A DNA stretch of 64,000 nucleotides from Gammaproteobacteria bacterium (lineage in GTDB: Bacteria > Pseudomonadota > Gammaproteobacteria > GCA-001735895). Numbering within the stretch: the stretch's first letter is position 1; the number at the start of each line of letters is the position of its first letter. The notes beneath the pieces are model-generated. The model did no database searches and was not told where the DNA came from. It was given only the letters and a program-made list of their open reading frames with translations. The translations under genes were made by a program, and so were the position numbers. Of the stretch, positions 38,579 through 48,571 are shown one piece after another. The DNA lies in the NCBI GenBank assembly GCA_050306135.1, contig JBNLGQ010000040.1, forward strand, positions 14,385-78,384, written 5' to 3'.

Positions 38579-39451
38579 CTAGGTTGCAAACTGCTGAATG
38601 GTTTTCAGCATGGCCTCTACGGCACGTGAGTGACTGCGCCGGGGGTTGATCACAATACCAAGCTGACGGCTACAGTTGAATTCGCTTATATCCAGAGCTA
38701 TAACACTGTGATCGACCATGCTCATTGGCAAAATACTCCAGCCCAGGCCGACCGAAACCATCATTTTAATGGTTTCCAGATAGTTGGTTTCCAGACTGAT
38801 TTTAAGTTCATCCTTAAAAGAGGCTAGTGCAGTTTCAATTGCCTCGCGGGTAAAGGTGCCATGTGAGGGCAATATTGCCGTATGCTGAGTGAGCATTTTC
38901 AGCTCGGGTTTATCGACCTGAGTCAGGGCATGGTTACTGGAGCAGACAATTTTTAATTCATCTATCCATACGGTCTGATAATCCAGTGCAGCGGATGTGG
39001 CGAATGGGAGGGTGACTACTGCCAGATCCATTTGATTCTGTTCTATCAGCGTACATGCCTGTTCCGAATCCATAAAATGTAGATCAAGATCAACCTCGGG
39101 GTATTCGGCAGAATAGGCTCGCAGCACCGGAGGCAGGCGATGTAGACCAATATGATGACTGGTTGCCATACTCAGCGAGCCCATAGGGTTACCCTCCATG
39201 TCGGCTATCTGCTGACGTATGGATTGCAGGTCGAGCATGATTTGACGGGCCTTTGGCAATAGCAGTTCTCCAGTACGCGTCAGATTAAGCTGTTTGCCGA
39301 TGCGATCAATTAGGTGAGTGCCGAGCTGCTCTTCCAACTGTTTAATGCGTTTACTGATGGCAGGCTGAGTTAAAAACAGCTGTTCCGCAGCCACTGAAAA
39401 GGAACGGGTTTCTGCAACCTTGATAAATGCCTGAAGGTTGGCGGTATCCAT
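38579..39451 (-). CDS. LysR-family regulator divergent from leuC
   Basis: HTH SFSVAAEQLFLTQPAISKRIKQLE; ATSHHIGLHRLP. Confidence 0.93.
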   Translation of the reverse strand: MDTANLQAFIKVAETRSFSVAAEQLFLTQPAISKRIKQLEEQLGTHLIDRIGKQLNLTRTGELLLPKARQIMLDLQSIRQQIADMEGNPMGSLSMATSHHIGLHRLPPVLRAYSAEYPEVDLDLHFMDSEQACTLIEQNQMDLAVVTLPFATSAALDYQTVWIDELKIVCSSNHALTQVDKPELKMLTQHTAILPSHGTFTREAIETALASFKDELKISLETNYLETIKMMVSVGLGWSILPMSMVDHSVIALDISEFNCSRQLGIVINPRRSHSRAVEAMLKTIQQFAT

Positions 39452-39554
39452 GACTGATATTCCAATTAGTTATGATAGTTATGAAAATTATGAGTTAGAG
39501 TTATTCTTTAATCAAGGTTAGACTCAACAACAGTTAACAATCAAGGTGAATGAG

Positions 39555-40967
39555 ATGGCTGCTTTAACGCTTTATGACAAGGTTTGGAACCGACACATAG
39601 TAAAACAGGAAGAGAATGGTACAGCTTTGCTGTATATCGACCGTCATCTGGTGCATGAGGTGACTTCTCCTCAGGCGTTTGAAGGTTTAGTCATCAACAA
39701 TCGTCCGCTCTGGCGTAAGCAATCGATTCTGGCTGTGCCTGATCATAATGTACCTACCGATAAGGGTGAGCGAAGTCAGGAGATCACAGACCCTGTGGCC
39801 CGCTTGCAGGTGGATACACTGGATAAGAATTGCGCAGACTTTGATCTGAATGAATTCAAAATGGACGATATACGCCAGGGTGTGGTGCATGTTATCGGCC
39901 CTGAACAGGGTGCTACCTTACCCGGTATGACCGTGGTGTGCGGCGATTCGCATACTGCAACGCACGGAGCTTTCGGTGCTTTAGCCTTTGGTATAGGTAC
40001 CTCTGAGGTTGAGCATGTGATGGCTACCCAGTGCCTGATCCAGAAAAAATCAAAGAATATGCGTATTACTATCGAAGGTGCGGTAGGCAAAGGGGTTACT
40101 GCGAAGGATATCGTGCTTGCCATTATTGGCAGAATTGGTACAGCAGGTGGCACCGGTTATACCATTGAGTTTGCAGGTGAAGCGATCACTAATCTGTCGA
40201 TGGAAGGTCGTATGACTGTGTGCAATATGGCCATAGAAGGCGGTGCCCGTGCTGGCATGATTGCCTGTGATCAAACCACCATCGATTATGTGAAAGGGCG
40301 TCCTTTTGCCCCTGGCGGGGAGCAGTGGGATCAGGCGGTGAGTTACTGGAATACCCTGCACTCCGATGCTGATGCGGTATTTGATCGTGAAATTGTCATC
40401 GAAGCGGCTAGTATTCAGCCACAGGTTACCTGGGGCACCTCTCCAGAAATGGTCATCGCAGTGAACGAAACAGTTCCTGATCCATCTACCGAGGCGGATG
40501 AAGTGAAAGCTAACGGGATGCAGAACGCACTCAAATACATGGGGCTGAATGCGAATGAAGCCATCAACCAGATTTCGGTGGATAAGGTGTTTATCGGTTC
40601 CTGCACCAATTCTCGTATTGAAGATTTGCGTGCTGCAGCAGATATCGCAAAAGGTCGTAAAGTGGCGGATAATGTGAAGCTTGCATTAGTGGTTCCCGGT
40701 AGTGGGCTGGTCAAAGCGCAGGCTGAGCAGGAAGGGCTGGACAGGATATTTGTCGAAGCTGGTTTCGAATGGCGTGAGCCTGGCTGTTCCATGTGCCTGG
40801 CAATGAATGCAGATCGACTGGAACCGGGAGAGCGTTGTGCGTCCACTTCCAATCGTAACTTTGAAGGTCGTCAGGGGCAGGGTGGTCGTACCCATCTGGT
40901 GTCCCCGGCGATGGCTGCTGCTGCTGCGGTTTTCGGTCACTTCACCGATGTGCGGGAGCTTAATTAA
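39555..40967 (+). CDS. leuC: 3-isopropylmalate dehydratase large subunit
   Basis: [43 protein letters not shown]. Confidence 0.98.
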
Positions 40968-41155: not shown

Positions 41156-41791
41156 GTGGAAAAGTTTGAAAAGTTTACCGGGATTGTCGCAGCTATAGAT
41201 CGACCCAATGTCGATACCGATGCCATCATCCCCAAGCAATATTTGAAGTCAATTAAACGTACTGGCTTTGGTCCAAATCTGTTTGATGACTGGCGTTATC
41301 TTGATCCGGGTTTGCCGGGAATGGACCATCGTGAACGTCGTGTTAATCCTGACTTTATGTTGAACAAGACGCCTTACAAATATGCTCAGATATTGCTGGC
41401 CAGAGAAAACTTTGGCTGCGGATCTTCACGCGAACATGCGGTATGGGCTTTAACTGATTTTGGTTTTAAGGTTGTTATCGCACCTAGCTTTGCTGATATC
41501 TTTTTTAACAACAGTTTTAAAAGCGGGCTGCTGCCTATTGTCTTAAGTCCGGCGATTGTTGATCAGCTATTCAATGAGCTGAACGAAAAAGAAGATTACC
41601 AGTTATCGGTTGATCTTGAACAGCAAGTGGTGTGCAATTCTGCAGGTGTGCAGATATCTTTTGAAGTCGATGAATTCCGCAAGTTTTGCCTGTTGAATGG
41701 ACTGGATGACATTGGTTTGACCCTGCAAAATGCGGATGCGATAAAAGCTTTTGAAGAGAAGTATTATCAACAATCACCGTGGCTAAAGTGA
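41156..41791 (+). CDS. leuD: 3-isopropylmalate dehydratase small subunit
   Basis: [34 protein letters not shown]. Confidence 0.97.
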
Positions 41792-41805: not shown

Positions 41806-42882
41806 ATGGCATCTAAAATAGCTGTTTTAGCGGGAGATGGTATTGGTCCTGAAATCATCAATGAGGCAGTAAAGGTACTCGAGTGCCTGAAGCGTTATCA
41901 TGGCTTACCGGTTGAGATGGAAAGCGCTACTATTGGTGGGGCAGCTTACGATGAGTCTGGATCTCCGCTACCCGAAAAAACATTGGCGCTTTGCAAGGAG
42001 TCAGATGCTATATTGATGGGCGCAGTGGGTGGGCCACAGTATCAATCTCTGGAAAGAGATTTGAGGCCTGAAAAAGGGCTGTTGAACCTGCGTTCAGAGC
42101 TGGGCCTATTCTCGAGTTTACGTCCGGCCATTCTCTATCCGCAACTGGCAAGCGCCTCCAGTCTTAAACCTGAGATTGTTTCTGGACTGGATATATTGAT
42201 TGTTCGTGAATTGATCGGTGGTGTTTATTTTGGCCAGCCACGCGGCATTCGTACCCTGGATAGCGGCGAGCGTGAAGGCTATAACACGTTGATTTACGCA
42301 GAACATGAAATTGAACGTATTGCGCGATCAGCTTTTGAAGTGGCTATGAAGCGTAATAAAAAAGTATGTTCTGTAGATAGCGCCAATTTGCTTGAGGTTT
42401 CCGAGCTTTGGCGTGAAGTTATGCAGCGTGTAGTAAAGGAGTACCCAGAGATTGAGCTATCACATATGTATGTCGGTAATGCTTCTATGCAACTGGTGAG
42501 ATGGCCTAAACAGTTTGATGTGATGGTCACCAGTAATATGTTTGGCGATATTCTATCTGATACTGCTGCGATGTTAACGGGCTCAATCGGTATGCTGCCA
42601 TCAGCTTCGCTGGATAAAGATGGCAAAGGTCTGTACGAGCCCATTCATGGGTCGGCTCCGGATATAGTTGGAACCAATACCGCCAATCCTTTGGCGACCA
42701 TTTTATCTGTGGGAATGATGTTGCGTTATAGCCTGAATAATCCAGAGCTTGCCGATCGTGTCGATCAGGCTGTGGAGCTTGTGCTCGATAAGGGTATCCG
42801 TACACAGGATATTGCAGATGGTGGATCTTATGTCAGCACCAGTGAAATGGGTAATGCTGTAGTTAACATTTTAAAGAAATAA
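41806..42882 (+). CDS. leuB: 3-isopropylmalate dehydrogenase-like protein with atypical active-site substitutions
   Basis: [27 protein letters not shown] and operon context; but VDSAN (canonical VDKAN) and YVGN (canonical YVDN). Confidence 0.9.
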
Positions 42883-42893
42883 GGGTAAAAATA

Positions 42894-44009
42894 ATGAATA
42901 GAGTGGGTTTTATTGGTTGGCGCGGGATGGTGGGTTCCGTTTTAATGCAGCGTATGCGTGAAGAGAATGATTTTGCGAAAATCGCAGAACCTGTTTTTTT
43001 TACTACTTCACAGGTCGGTCAGGCAGGACCTGATATCGGCAAGGAAACGCCTCCATTAATGGATGCGAATGACATTGAGTCTTTAAAATCAATGGATGCA
43101 ATTGTTACCTGTCAGGGTGGGGATTACACCAAACAGGTTTTTGATGATCTTCGTGCCAGCGGCTGGCAAGGGTACTGGATAGATGCAGCTTCGGCATTAC
43201 GCATGAAAGATCATGCTGTGATTGTACTGGATCCAGTTAACCGCGACGTGATTGATGCTGCACTGGATGCGGGTAAAAAAGACTTTATCGGTGGCAACTG
43301 TACCGTCAGCCTGATGATGCTGGCCTTAGGTGGATTACTGCAAAATGATCAAATCGAATGGATTAGTGCAATGACCTATCAGGCTGCATCCGGTGCGGGT
43401 GCGCGTAATATGCGTGAGCTGATCAGCCAGATGGGCAGTATTGAAAAATCAGTACATGATTTATTGCTGGACCCATCTTCTGCAATCCTGGATATAGATC
43501 GTCAAGTTGCCGAGCATATTCGTTCAGCTGAATATCCTACTGATCAATTTGGTGTGCCATTAGCGGGCAGCTTAATTCCCTGGATAGACGTGCAACTGGA
43601 AAATGGTCAGAGCAAGGAAGAATGGAAAGGTGGTGTAGAAACCAACAAAATCCTGGGGCGTTCTGATAATTTGATTCCTATTGATGGTCTTTGTGTCAGA
43701 ATAGGGGCAATGCGTTGTCACTCCCAGGCATTAACGATCAAGCTAAAGCAAAATCTGCCGATGGATGAAATTCACGATATGCTGGCAAAAGCTAACGATT
43801 GGGTTAAAGTGCTGCCCAATGATCGAGACATCAGCATGCAACAGCTATCACCTGCCGTAGTAACCGGATCTCTGGATATTCCAGTTGGACGCCTACGTAA
43901 GATGGCAATGGGTGAAAACTATCTGTCTGCTTTTACTGTTGGTGATCAATTATTATGGGGCGCGGCAGAACCGCTACGAAGAATGTTAAATATTTTACTA
44001 AACAGATGA
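42894..44009 (+). CDS. asd: Aspartate-semialdehyde dehydrogenase
   Basis: [39 protein letters not shown]. Confidence 0.97.
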
Positions 44010-44944
44010 CACAACCACTAATTGCAATAACTCATGCCAGCTCTCTGCTGGCAGAAGTTTTAATCCAGCAAATGGCAGAATCCGGCATCAAGTCGGATTC
44101 TGTCGTTTTACTCGATACTAACGAAGAGTCCGGTAATAGACTGGCCTATGCAGATACCTATCTGACCGTAGGTGATCAATACGAATATGACTACGAAAAC
44201 TTAACAGCAGTTTTGCTGTTACAGGCGGATAACGAGCTGGAAAGCCTGTTACAGCATTGTGACAGTTATGTGATCAGTCATCACCTGGATAAAAATCGAG
44301 AAGGTTTATATGTGACAGGATCTGATCTCCCTGACAGCCCCGCGATGATCAAATTACCCAGTCCTGAAGTGGCGACCTTGATGATGGTCATTAATCCACT
44401 GATGCAATCGATGACGATTAAATCACTACAGACAGTCAATGTTCTATCTGCAGCTCTGTTCGGAAAGTCCGGAATTGAGCAGCTCGCTAAACAAACTATC
44501 AACCTGTTAAATAGCAAGGAGGCAGAAAATAGTTTGTTTCCTTTGCAACTTGCTTTTAATATGCTGCCCGCAGTATCAAACACCGAACTGGAGTATCAGT
44601 TATCTACTGCACTGGGTAGTGATACGCAGTGCTCTATAAATAATATACTGGTACCAGCTATGCATGGAATGGCAATATCAGTGTCGGTAGAGCTGGGTGA
44701 AGAGGTGACCTCAGAAGAGGTTCATGACAGGTTGAGTGCTATTGAGGGTGTTGTATTGACTAAACAACCGGTAAGCCCTTTGACACACTGTCAAAATGGT
44801 ACAGATATCGTGATATTCGATCTGAATCAGCCTCAAAATGATGCTAAAAGATTACATTTCTGGATGATTGCCGATTCACTTAGAAATGGATTGGTGCAAA
44901 ATTACCTGAATATATTGGAAGTTTTGCTAAAATCTTTTTTATAA
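44006..44944 (+). CDS. Usg-like Asd paralog lacking the catalytic Cys
   Basis: [18 protein letters not shown]; PSPEV where NC is expected; typical asd-usg-fimV-truA context. Confidence 0.75.
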
Positions 44945-45067: not shown

Positions 45068-48000
45068 GTGCGTAAATCGGGAACAATATTATCACTTTGG
45101 ACAGCGTTACTGTGTTTTCCACTCAGTATCTTTGCCCTGGGCCTAGGTGAGATCGAAGTTAATTCGTATTTAAATCAGCCGCTTAAGGCTGAAATTGAAG
45201 TGGTGGCTGCGCGGCCAGGAGAGATCGACGATCTACTGGTCAGCCTGGCAAGTCGCGATGCTTTTCGTAAAGCGGGTCTTGAGCGCCCATCAGATTTATC
45301 CAAACTGCGCTTTCAGATTGAAAAAGCTGAGGATGCTCAGAGTGCAAAAATTCTGATCACAACGAAGTCAGCCATTAAAGAGCCTTTTCTAAATTTCCTG
45401 GTGGAAGCCGATTGGGCCAAAGGGCGTTTACTGAGAGAGTATACCGTCCTGTTAGATCCTCCCTATTTTGCCCAGCAGGCACAACAGGCTGCCCCCAGTA
45501 TCACTAATGAGCCTGCCACTGAATCTCAACCAGCTCCACTGCCCGAGACTCAGCAGGATAGTATGGCAATCGAGCCAGAGGCCGCTGCTCAGCCACAGCC
45601 TATAGCCTTAAACGAACAAACAGCTCAGCCAGTTGAAGAACAGGAACCTGAATCCAGTTATACCGCTCAACCAACCTACAGCGAAACTAGTCCTGTCGAA
45701 AATGAATTTGTCGTTACTCGTGGAGATACTCTGTGGGGTATCGCTGCTCGAATCAAGGATGATGATCACAGTATGGCGCAGGTGATGCTGGCTATCCAGA
45801 CTGCTAATCCTGATGCTTTTGCAAGGGATAACATCAATAACTTAAAAGTGGGTGCTGTTATCCGCATGCCTGACAGTGCCTCCTTTGATGACCTGAGCAA
45901 GCAACAGGCTTATGCACAGGTACTTGAGCAAAATGGGCTTTGGGACGATTACGTTGCCAGAAAAACAGGCACGGCTACAGCCGGTAGCCCAATGGCTGAT
46001 ACTGCCGCTTCATCTGAGCCTGTTGAAGCTGAGTCCGGGCAATTAAGTCTACTTGCCCCTGGTGATGAGGATTCTACAACTGCCAGTATGACATCAGATG
46101 ACTCTGCCGATTCCAATCAATTACGTAAACAACTGGCGCTGGCTGAAGAAGAGCTGGAAGCATCGCGCCTGGAAAATAAGGATTTACAGTCTCGTGTAGC
46201 TGATCTGGAACGTCAGCTAGAGAAAGTTGAAGAGCTGCAAAAGATAGTTCAGATTACTAACAATAGTATGGCCCAGATTCAGCAACAGGCGGCTGATCAG
46301 GAACCGGCTACTGAAGAAAGTAGTAGCATGGTAGAAGAACAACCAAGCGATGTGATGATCGAAGCAGCTGAGAAATTAGCAGCTGAAGAAGGAGATCAGT
46401 CGCTCGATACAACAGACCAGGCTGCAGAAATGATGGTAGACGAAGCCGAGTCAGAAGGTGTTACTGATTCTATGGCTCAATCTACTGATACCATGTCTAC
46501 TGAGGCTGAAACCGTACTGCCAACCCTCCCAGAACAGGATATGCAGCAGGCGGATGATGGCATGATTGCTGATGAAGCCGACACACAACAGCAAACTGAA
46601 GCTGTTCCTGCACCTGCACCTGTCATTGTGACTGAATCTCAGGATGGTATTCTGGATACCGTACCTTCAGTAGATAGTCTTTTAGGTGACCCTATCGTAT
46701 TGGGTGGTATTGGCGCCATAGTCTTATTGTTATTAGGTCTGTTATTTGTACGTCGTCGCAAGTCTTCCGAAGCTGAACAGGGTATCACCATTGAGGAACC
46801 TGATGAGTCTCTAGTTGATGATGACGCGACACCGATCCACCTACCTTCAGTGGGAGACACTGAAGACAGCAAAACACCTGAAGAAGATGAACTGGTAGCT
46901 GATACGGCATCTATGTTGGCTGAGCCTACAGAACAGGCTGAAGATGAATTTTCTAAAACCGCAATAATTTCTGAAGATGAAACCCAGCAAATAGAAAACG
47001 ATTCATCCGCCGTTGATGCTGAGCAGGATGACGTGCTGAATGAGGTCGACGTATATCTAGCCTATGGCCTATATGAGAATGCTGAAGATTTACTAAAAGA
47101 AAACCTTGAAAACTCCCCCGATCGTGCAGATTATCGAGCCAAATTACTGGATACCTTTTTTGCTACCAAGAACAAAGATCAGTTCGTTAAGGAAGCAGAG
47201 GCTCTTAAATCTCTCGGCGGTGCAGCTGATCGTTACTGGAATCGCGTACAGATCATGGGTTATGAACTGGCACCAGAAAATGAATTATTTGCCGGTGCTC
47301 AGGATAGTGATTTATCGGTAGCTGACCTTGAGTTCGCCAAGCCTGAAACTGCTGATTTTGATATTGGTGCAGATGACGATGTTACCGATTATTCAAATAC
47401 AGATTTTGACCTAAGCGTTGATACTCAAAATTTTGAGCCAATAGATCCTACTGTTGTAAAGCCGGCAGCAGTTGTTGAATCAACGGATACTCAAAATATC
47501 GAACCTGTTTTAGACGAATTCTCTGAAACAATGGTAGATAACGAACTGGATCTACCTGAACTGGAAACTGAAGATGAGGAGTTGCCTGATGATATTGGCG
47601 ATTTCGATCTTGATTTAGGTGAAAATGAAACATCAGAATCAAATGACGATGATCTAGACCTCTTAAGTGAGGAAATTGAAGCTGCAGAAGAAGATGATGC
47701 TCTAAGCTTCGACTTACCTGATGATCTGGATCTGTCTACAGGTGTTGAAGATATGGCTGACGATGCCGATATTATCGAGTTGGACGATACGGTTGAAGCT
47801 CCTGCTGCTCAGGATGAACAGTCAGATATGGAAGATGATGATGTCATACTGGAACTGGATTCGGATGATGATGACGAAGCCGACTTAGGGGAAGTCGAAG
47901 TTGAACTGGATACAGGCTCTGCGGAAGATAATGTACAGAAAGCATTTAATTCAACAGATGAGATCAATCTATCTGATATTGCTCTGGATGAGCCAAAGGA

Positions 48001-48571
48001 TATTACTGATACCATGCTAATAGATTCAGCTGAGCTGAATGTCGAGGGTGAAGGATCAGAATCAGATGAAGATGATGAAGAAATTCAGAATCTTGATTCG
48101 GCGCTGGACTTTGATATGTCAGATATTGATTCTGCAGAGCTTCAAACGGGTACTTTTTCACCCTCTGAAGTTGAAGGGGGAGCATCTGAAGATGAAGGCT
48201 TAGATGGAGATGATGATACCGAGTTCAGACCTGCAGAAATGACAGGCGAGTTTGAGGTGCCAGCTGAATCAGATATTCATGATGAAATTGACCCTGATGC
48301 TGGAATAGAAAAGACGGGTACCTTTGCCCCTGGTGATTTTGGTGATGATGAGCTAAATGACTTCTCTTCTATGGATGATGGCCTGGATGATATCGAAGAT
48401 TTGATGCTACCCGATGATGTTGATGAAGTAGCAACCAAACTTGATTTGGCTAAAGCGTTTATTGATATGGGTGATGCTGAAGGCGCTAGAAGTAGTCTGG
48501 AAGAAGTGCTGTCCGAAGGTACTCAGGAACAGAAAGCTGAAGCGACCGGCTTACTGGAACAGATAAAGTAA
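45068..48571 (+). CDS. fimV: Polar landmark protein FimV/HubP
   Basis: ALGLGEIEVNSYLNQPL, REYTVLLDPP, LysM (GDTLWGIA), TM, EVDVYLAYG TPR, acidic region, TKLDLAKAFIDMGD. Confidence 0.93.
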   Translation: MRKSGTILSLWTALLCFPLSIFALGLGEIEVNSYLNQPLKAEIEVVAARPGEIDDLLVSLASRDAFRKAGLERPSDLSKLRFQIEKAEDAQSAKILITTKSAIKEPFLNFLVEADWAKGRLLREYTVLLDPPYFAQQAQQAAPSITNEPATESQPAPLPETQQDSMAIEPEAAAQPQPIALNEQTAQPVEEQEPESSYTAQPTYSETSPVENEFVVTRGDTLWGIAARIKDDDHSMAQVMLAIQTANPDAFARDNINNLKVGAVIRMPDSASFDDLSKQQAYAQVLEQNGLWDDYVARKTGTATAGSPMADTAASSEPVEAESGQLSLLAPGDEDSTTASMTSDDSADSNQLRKQLALAEEELEASRLENKDLQSRVADLERQLEKVEELQKIVQITNNSMAQIQQQAADQEPATEESSSMVEEQPSDVMIEAAEKLAAEEGDQSLDTTDQAAEMMVDEAESEGVTDSMAQSTDTMSTEAETVLPTLPEQDMQQADDGMIADEADTQQQTEAVPAPAPVIVTESQDGILDTVPSVDSLLGDPIVLGGIGAIVLLLLGLLFVRRRKSSEAEQGITIEEPDESLVDDDATPIHLPSVGDTEDSKTPEEDELVADTASMLAEPTEQAEDEFSKTAIISEDETQQIENDSSAVDAEQDDVLNEVDVYLAYGLYENAEDLLKENLENSPDRADYRAKLLDTFFATKNKDQFVKEAEALKSLGGAADRYWNRVQIMGYELAPENELFAGAQDSDLSVADLEFAKPETADFDIGADDDVTDYSNTDFDLSVDTQNFEPIDPTVVKPAAVVESTDTQNIEPVLDEFSETMVDNELDLPELETEDEELPDDIGDFDLDLGENETSESNDDDLDLLSEEIEAAEEDDALSFDLPDDLDLSTGVEDMADDADIIELDDTVEAPAAQDEQSDMEDDDVILELDSDDDDEADLGEVEVELDTGSAEDNVQKAFNSTDEINLSDIALDEPKDITDTMLIDSAELNVEGEGSESDEDDEEIQNLDSALDFDMSDIDSAELQTGTFSPSEVEGGASEDEGLDGDDDTEFRPAEMTGEFEVPAESDIHDEIDPDAGIEKTGTFAPGDFGDDELNDFSSMDDGLDDIEDLMLPDDVDEVATKLDLAKAFIDMGDAEGARSSLEEVLSEGTQEQKAEATGLLEQIK

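Follow-up and report, generated by a model that had tools for sequence, protein, structure and literature searches.

The leuB1 locus and its active-site residues

The DNA analysed here is a 64,000-nucleotide stretch (the window) of contig JBNLGQ010000040.1 from a gammaproteobacterial assembly (GCA_050306135.1), and the subject of this analysis is leuB1, the third gene of a leucine operon ordered leuC1, leuD1, leuB1, asd. Its product, LeuB1, is by descent an orthologue of 3-isopropylmalate dehydrogenase (IPMDH), but its residues do not match those of a working enzyme, and we classify it as a putative young pseudoenzyme. LeuB1 reaches 485 bits with the equivalog model for LeuB, TIGR00169 (cut-off 353.2), aligns end to end with solved 3-isopropylmalate dehydrogenases (best PDB match the IPMDH 4iwh, E = 1.6e-139), and is up to 90% identical to the canonical LeuB of sister species. 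The gene order is also that expected of a LeuB orthologue; at the leuB loci of relatives, LeuD is present in 26/30 cases and Asd in 25/30. The initial annotation of this DNA had described a full-length open reading frame in an intact leu operon, and the 358-residue product with ordinary leuC1, leuD1, and asd as neighbours bears this out (Table 1).

The motifs that should carry the catalytic residues read VDSAN (S192), YVGN (G224), and FSSLRP (S104) in LeuB1, and PDB alignments place S192 opposite a Lys and G224 opposite an Asp of the solved IPMDHs. Translation and a codon check agree with the initial annotation, which had read AGC at position 192, GGT at 224, and SLRP in place of NLRP. It had also listed the substrate Arg residues, the Tyr, the GDILSD Asp residues, and EPxHGSAPD as retained; LeuB1 indeed keeps R96, R106, R134, Y141, D248, D252, EPIHGSAPD, and the NAD motifs. 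In AtIPMDH2, whose numbering is that of LeuB1 (P0001) plus 40 according to the PDB alignment, Lys232 (position 192 of LeuB1) activates a water that acts as the general base, and Asp288 and Asp292 of one monomer coordinate the Mg ion together with Asp264 of its neighbour (PMC8468904). A review assigns the same roles to Thermus Lys185 and to Asp217 of the second subunit (PMC9041340). Both sources agree with the earlier statement that the lost Lys and Asp are residues that the second subunit supplies in trans. A pocket Val that is likewise donated in trans has changed as well (V195L; PMC2796266 Table 3).

The same table lists 17 active-site residues for 1A05, 13 from the chain itself and four donated by chain B, whose positions in P0001 we assigned from motifs and their spacing. 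Of the four donated residues, three are altered in LeuB1 (K192S, V195L, and D224G, with N194 kept), against 0/13 of the own-chain residues, all of which are present. A Fisher test by hand gives 4/680 = 0.006 for this difference, a post hoc value for three donated residues that are mutual neighbours. LeuB1 thus lacks both the donated catalytic Lys and the donated metal-ligand Asp, and K192S and D224G amount to the loss of essential residues by which a pseudoenzyme is recognized.

The three nearest species (L004, L005, and L006) have AAA, GAT, and AAT at codons 192, 224, and 104. Because the sister codon is AAA, the change from Lys to Ser at 192 took two base changes, as had been pointed out for an AGC codon at this site. 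Compared with the sister codons AAA, GAT, AAT, ACT, ATA, and GTG, the window lineage differs by seven base changes over six codons (non-synonymous or linked). C>T, T>C, and G>T all occur among these changes, which rules out an adenine-targeted mutagenesis like that of diversity-generating retroelements.

We then located the changes relative to conservation across the protein. Of the 206 columns with a conservation of at least 95% across 119 homologues, LeuB1 deviates at seven; the median of the other sequences is one. One of the seven, M131L, is common to the sister species; the six private changes are N104S, T137I, I140V, K192S, V195L, and D224G. Every one of the six lies within three residues of R96, R106, R134, Y141, K192, D224, D248, or D252, in windows that hold 43 of the 206 conserved positions (clustering p = 6e-5), and the clustering persists when K192 and D224 are omitted and four changes are left (p = 0.0014). 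At the roughly 163 conserved positions outside these windows, LeuB1 shows no change. In all, 30 substitutions separate the window lineage (genome G000) from all three sisters, six of them at sites at least 95% conserved; polarised with outgroups, 18 substitutions fall on the G000 side and four on the sister stem, and 13 are ambiguous. No compensating Lys was seen among the 30 lineage-specific changes, the only charged gains being A65E, G324E, and Q357K.

Table 1. Coordinates of the leuB1 operon, of the altered codons of leuB1, and of the second leucine-type gene set (positions in the window unless another contig or locus is named)
Feature	Location	Strand	Remark
leuB1 open reading frame, 358 aa (P0001)	41806-42882	+	operon LeuB orthologue, altered active site
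leuB1 codon 104, AGT Ser	42115-42117	+	replaces invariant Asn of ANLRP (AAT in sisters); N in 109/109 loci
leuB1 codon 106, CGT Arg, substrate-binding	42121-42123	+	polymorphic; CAC His in part of the population
leuB1 codons 137-140 of RELTGGIYFG, T137I and I140V	42214-42225	+	adjoin L136 and Y141
leuB1 codon 192, AGC Ser	42379-42381	+	replaces partner-donated general-base Lys; AAA in sister species
leuB1 codon 195, TTG Leu	42388-42390	+	replaces donated pocket Val (Val193* of 1A05); V in 108/109 loci
leuB1 codon 224, GGT Gly	42475-42477	+	replaces partner-donated metal-ligand Asp; GAT in sister species
leuC1, isopropylmalate isomerase large subunit	39546-40967	+	ordinary; TIGR00170, 799 bits
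leuD1, isomerase small subunit	41156-41791	+	ordinary; profile match, conserved columns unaltered
asd, aspartate-semialdehyde dehydrogenase	42894-44009	+	starts 11 nt past leuB1 stop
LysR-family regulator	38579-39451	-	divergent from leuC1, upstream of operon
leuB2, 366 aa	G000:C1:38336-39433; 10337-11437 of L128 (= G000:C1:28000-47999)	+	44% identical to LeuB1
YcaQ-like open reading frame	L128 11643-12857	-	between leuB2 and the cimA-like gene
cimA-like synthase	L128 12888-14447	-	best model Leptospira CimA, 637 bits, under cut-off 950
leuD2	L128 14468-15079	-	second leucine-type gene set
leuC2	L128 15128-16525	-	second leucine-type gene set

Occurrence of the substitutions and selection on leuB1

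Among the 119 other homologues listed (the best 120 of 8000 scored), K192 is found in 117, D224 in 118, and N104 in 118. P0002, a member of the LeuB1 cluster, is one exception; the others are three short-contig sequences with many other oddities. These three LeuB relatives (P0065, P0066, and P0083, on contigs of 1.2-1.9 kb) deviate at many invariant sites, with K192Q in two, D224E in one, D248G or changes of D248 to L, and they depart from conserved columns 11-15 times; error-rich assembly or independent decay of these copies may account for this. We also compared 109 other loci, of which 80 are on metagenome contigs and 29 come from the genomes of 40 relatives, and N104, R106, K192, and D224 are present in 109/109. 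In the other genomes of the genus, the changes are absent from every locus compared. The initial annotation had proposed a test of relatives for the joint occurrence of K→S and D→G; the two do not occur at any of these loci, which all keep K192 and D224, and on this comparison the changes are private to one species-level lineage.

S192 and G224 are not an assembly error. Logan contigs of four runs (X1-X4) span both codons, with no difference listed at either; X1 and X2 possibly represent the source sample, and X3 and X4 come from further samples of that study. Runs X5-X17 contain small shares of the sequence. The canonical codons that would have undone the observation do not appear in these consensus contigs. 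The exact LeuB1 protein is also found on five NCBI contigs, and three near-identical JGI proteins (P0002 and P0122, full length, and P0124, 321 aa) carry S104, S192, and G224. When metagenomes were scanned for DNA of the near-identical variants, the matches were relatives with no more than 84% identity. The genome is a 115-contig assembly, which could speak for a sequencing or assembly artefact, but with identical codons in the contigs of four runs, five NCBI contigs, and three JGI proteins, and with seven base changes over six codons, we find such an origin scarcely credible. A minor canonical allele may nevertheless be present in the population, as contigs drop rare variants.

Relative to the window, the contigs with S192 and G224 show differences at 15 synonymous and three non-synonymous codons (S40A, T42A, and R106H), which corresponds to a ratio of non-synonymous to synonymous polymorphism (pN/pS) of 0.06 and a binomial p of 1.5e-7 against a neutral non-synonymous fraction of 0.76. 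Eight of the synonymous differences lie within 82 bases (42744-42825) in the X3 and X4 contigs, and in the X3 contig this cluster is the sole difference in leuB1; it may be a short recombination tract from a related strain. With the eight-SNP cluster omitted, p is 0.0025. No frameshift or stop was found in the five cluster members. The substrate-binding arginine at 106, an R in every other locus compared, is replaced by His in P0002, in P0122 (which has a different background at 40, 42, and 214), and in the X4 contig, and the change is thus carried on at least two haplotype backgrounds. Because there are few non-synonymous differences and yet R106H is among them, it seems to be the fold that is constrained and no longer the active site.

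One further protein, P0123, is a 197-aa fragment 94% identical to P0001 that has K192 and V195 but G224. It is sister-like at 178, 192, 195, 207, 325, 354, and 357 and G000-like at 224, 243, 276, 288, 303, 324, and 350, and these states fall partly in blocks (five runs; runs test by hand, p ~0.08). P0123 may show that D224G came first, or it may be a mosaic or a chimeric contig. We dropped its use as an intermediate proving this order on account of the partial blocks, which leave room for a recombinant or chimeric contig.

Selection on the operon was assessed with a two-ratio codon model on five of 30 loci, the remainder having been left out since their synonymous divergence (dS) exceeded 2. 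For leuB, the ratio of non-synonymous to synonymous rates (omega) is 0.094 on the G000 branch and 0.037 in the background (likelihood-ratio test (LRT) 8.7, p = 0.003), and an omega of 1 on the G000 branch is rejected (LRT 20.7, p = 5e-6). The corresponding values are 0.035 and 0.028 for leuD (p = 0.74; omega = 1 rejected, LRT 7.6, p = 0.006) and 0.028 and 0.023 for asd (p = 0.69; omega = 1 rejected, LRT 20.2, p = 7e-6). At conserved columns, G000 shows no deviation in LeuD (0/105), in Asd (0/185), or in the last 200 aa of LeuC (0/115). Since the leuD, asd, and leuC controls are unchanged, the rise in omega belongs to leuB1 alone and is focused on its active site. The same controls rule out a decay of the entire operon.

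Taken with the 15:3 ratio above, the branch omega suggests that purifying selection has persisted after the loss of the catalytic residues. Purifying selection on the altered LeuB had been proposed as a check, and the rejection of omega = 1 is consistent with the regulatory pseudoenzyme that was then raised as an alternative. Changes private to a strain and under relaxed selection had been named as an outcome that would refute the earlier proposal. This description fits by half: the substitutions are confined to one species-level lineage and omega has risen 2.5x, but it is still far below 1.

A second LeuB in the genome

The genome holds three members of the family, namely leuB1, an NADP-isocitrate dehydrogenase, and LeuB2. 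The initial annotation had called for a second LeuB-family gene that retains the Lys and the Asp, and LeuB2 is such a gene. It passes TIGR00169 with 363.6 bits (cut-off 353.2) and keeps the N, K, V, and D as well as every own-site motif. The gene lies on a contig other than that of leuB1, 1.5-5 kb from a cimA-like gene, leuD2, and leuC2, in a set that probably serves either isoleucine synthesis by way of citramalate or a second isopropylmalate pathway.

LeuB2 orthologues with at least 90% identity occur in nine of 14 genomes of the genus, counting G000, and in none of 27 genomes from three other genera of the family. All nine keep the motifs, and the G000 copy has six private substitutions, none in a motif (range among the orthologues 0-14). 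An ideal partner had been envisaged as one that lacks the cis residues, which LeuB2 and its eight orthologues are not, as they keep all own-site and donated motifs. Nor does LeuB2 look like a dedicated partner of the kind a heterodimer would call for: it is unlinked, it predates the loss, and the eight other genomes of the genus pair it with a canonical LeuB.

More distant relatives of LeuB2 (72-90% identity) are widespread in Gammaproteobacteria and include, by record title, Halioglobus, Methylomonas, Methylobacter, Cycloclasticus, and Pseudohongiella. At 80 loci of the LeuB2 type, a cimA-like gene is present in 54, LeuD in 16, and LeuC in 12. In four of five named other gammaproteobacterial genomes that were checked, the LeuB2 type is the only match above the LeuB cut-off. 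Such methanotrophs are considered prototrophs. By orthology, LeuB2 is very probably a competent isopropylmalate dehydrogenase. Some LeuB2-type loci (L136, L180, L197, L137, and L209) stand in records titled Klebsiella pneumoniae or in Planctomycetota or Deltaproteobacteria metagenome-assembled genomes; their neighbours and identities match the gammaproteobacterial module of LeuB2 and the cimA-like gene, and the records are probably mislabelled or mis-binned.

Explanations for LeuB1 and its wider surroundings

The reading that we favour, with a probability of about one half, is that LeuB1 is a catalytically disabled LeuB kept as a folded protein while LeuB2 supplies the activity. In this proposal, the donated half-site was replaced in one species-level lineage (general-base Lys by Ser, metal-ligand Asp by Gly, and pocket Val by Leu), and three second-shell residues changed as well (N104S, T137I, and I140V). 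A LeuB1 homodimer would then have no complete active site, so that, going by the family mechanism, it should oxidize 3-isopropylmalate poorly, if at all. The pathway itself appears to be in use because LeuC1 and LeuD1 are fully conserved, and the isopropylmalate step would most likely be carried out by LeuB2, to judge from its orthologues. The fold of LeuB1 would be retained by purifying selection, with constraint on the active site relaxed to the point that a substrate-binding Arg is polymorphic, and the protein would be a pseudoenzyme with some putative non-catalytic role in ligand binding, regulation, or partnership.

Several points weigh against this proposal. Eight other genomes of the genus hold LeuB2 and yet keep a canonical LeuB1, and because they keep both, redundancy alone does not explain the change in this lineage. 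Omega on the branch is an average over the periods preceding and following the loss, and polymorphism was counted in consensus contigs from a single study, with 8/15 of the synonymous differences possibly belonging to one recombination tract. A change confined to donated residues is also what a heterodimer would predict. A functionless open reading frame could persist through selection against misfolding or against polar effects on asd, and the action of LeuB2 on isopropylmalate in this organism is something that we infer from sequence.

The concern about a functionless open reading frame leads directly to the possibility that leuB1 is a gene on its way out: LeuB2 would have made LeuB1 dispensable, the active-site lesions would be the first neutral changes, and no function would be retained. 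The apparent constraint would in that case reflect a short time since the loss together with selection against asd polarity and a misfolded product. A complete second LeuB in the genome, a 2.5-fold rise in omega at leuB1 only, the segregating R106H, the restriction of the changes to one lineage, and an asd start only 11 nt past the leuB1 stop are all consistent with such a course. Neutrality, however, predicts that most changes at invariant sites would fall among the ~163 conserved positions away from the active site, where there are none, and all six are in active-site motifs. The synonymous to non-synonymous ratio of 15:3 among the S192/G224 haplotypes is likewise far from the neutral non-synonymous fraction of 0.76, and no member of the cluster has a frameshift or stop. 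Polarity accounts for the lack of stops but not for the scarcity of missense changes, and we think it unlikely, although worth keeping in mind, that the gene is simply dying.

The initial annotation had inferred that a paralogue could complete the site of LeuB1, in which case the donated Lys, Asp, and Val of LeuB2 would serve LeuB1's own site and the pair would have one composite site and one dead or regulatory site, much like the eukaryotic NAD-dependent isocitrate dehydrogenase. Part of that inference stands, since the residues lost are donated ones and a paralogue with the Lys and Asp exists. The confinement of the changes to donated residues (3/4 against 0/13 at the own site; PMC2796266 Table 3) is what this arrangement would leave behind; LeuB2, with its Lys and Asp, is the sole further gene of the LeuB class in the genome; purifying selection acts on LeuB1; and heteromeric members of the family have been solved (5gre, 6kde, and 3blv, judged by their titles). 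The other part fares less well. LeuB2 has neither a complementary loss nor unusual private changes (six, none in a motif), and with 44% identity to LeuB1, an unlinked position, and an origin older than the loss, it shows neither the complementary specialisation nor the linkage of a partner. On two or more haplotype backgrounds, moreover, R106H deletes an own-site arginine on which the composite site would depend, and this weakens the proposal further. We therefore regard a LeuB1-LeuB2 heterodimer as quite improbable, and it would be about as surprising if LeuB1 were an obligate asymmetric partner of LeuB2, whether as the own-site half of a composite site or as a regulatory subunit that senses 3-isopropylmalate or NAD.

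It is similarly doubtful that LeuB1 is still an enzyme, either as a weak but sufficient IPMDH that uses water or another base or with an enlarged pocket for a different substrate or chemistry. LeuB1 has kept all 13 own-site residues together with the NAD motifs, the conservative second-shell changes (T137I, I140V, and V195L) resemble tuning, the adjoining leuC1 and leuD1 are fully conserved, and the purifying selection on LeuB1 would be expected of an active protein. The family mechanism, on the other hand, requires the Lys and a metal site of three Asp residues (PMC8468904), and the 30 lineage-specific changes include no compensating Lys. The R106H polymorphism speaks against a conserved mode of substrate binding, and the change is limited to a single species-level lineage. 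In related enzymes, substitutions of the Lys cost orders of magnitude in rate, which also counts against an active LeuB1.

A catalytically disabled LeuB1 can be set against known systems. It is like canonical LeuB (EC 1.1.1.85; 4iwh, 1a05, 5j32, and Thermus 1hex) in descent, operon place, and own-site residues, and it differs from it in the absence of the donated Lys, Asp, and Val and in N104S, T137I, and I140V; by its residues it would not be a competent IPMDH. Human IDH3 alpha/beta/gamma and yeast IDH1/IDH2 (5gre, 6kde, and 3blv; by titles) belong to the same fold family, with two-subunit sites built from a catalytic and a non-catalytic paralogue. Their subunits are dedicated partners, whereas the candidate partner of LeuB1 is a complete LeuB that would be self-sufficient. 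In heteromeric NAD-dependent isocitrate dehydrogenases, the regulatory subunit lacks own-site residues and keeps the donated ones, the reverse of LeuB1. The displacement of a paralogue by a second leu set offers another parallel, in that a redundant isozyme makes the catalytic loss of the resident gene tolerable; here, however, the displaced leuB1 is neither deleted nor broken, only its active site is altered, and leuC1 and leuD1 are untouched. A literature search for pseudoenzyme forms of isopropylmalate dehydrogenase, covering titles and the opening parts of abstracts, returned no report of a LeuB without these residues.

Automatic annotation labels leuB1 an ordinary LeuB, and a metabolic reconstruction would enter it as the dehydrogenase of the leucine pathway. 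The residues imply that LeuB1 is probably not that enzyme and that the unlinked second LeuB would have to carry the flux. The locus may thus offer a rare early-stage snapshot in which a core biosynthetic orthologue, still in its operon, has its active site dismantled starting with the shared half while the fold remains under selection, and it provides a natural test case for the origin of pseudoenzymes or heteromeric enzymes from redundant homodimers. The scope is narrow, with one species-level lineage and a mundane enabling cause in the redundant LeuB2. Should an asymmetric pairing of LeuB1 with LeuB2 prove true, it would be a bacterial counterpart of eukaryotic IDH3 caught at its origin and with reversed polarity, the donated residues being those that are lost.

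Beyond these genes, an intact leuA, with 724.5 bits and thus over its cut-off, lies at another place in the genome. Next to asd, at 43955-44944, is an Asd-like paralogue; its best model is PRK05671 with 95.9 bits, far under the cut-off of 284, and because its listed start falls within the end of asd, translation probably begins further downstream. It is followed by a FimV/HubP-family gene at 45068-48571, and the order leuB-asd-asd-like-fimV resembles that of Pseudomonas. The second leu set (L128 10337-16525) is flanked by tdh-kbl upstream and by a Sec-dependent nosZ downstream.

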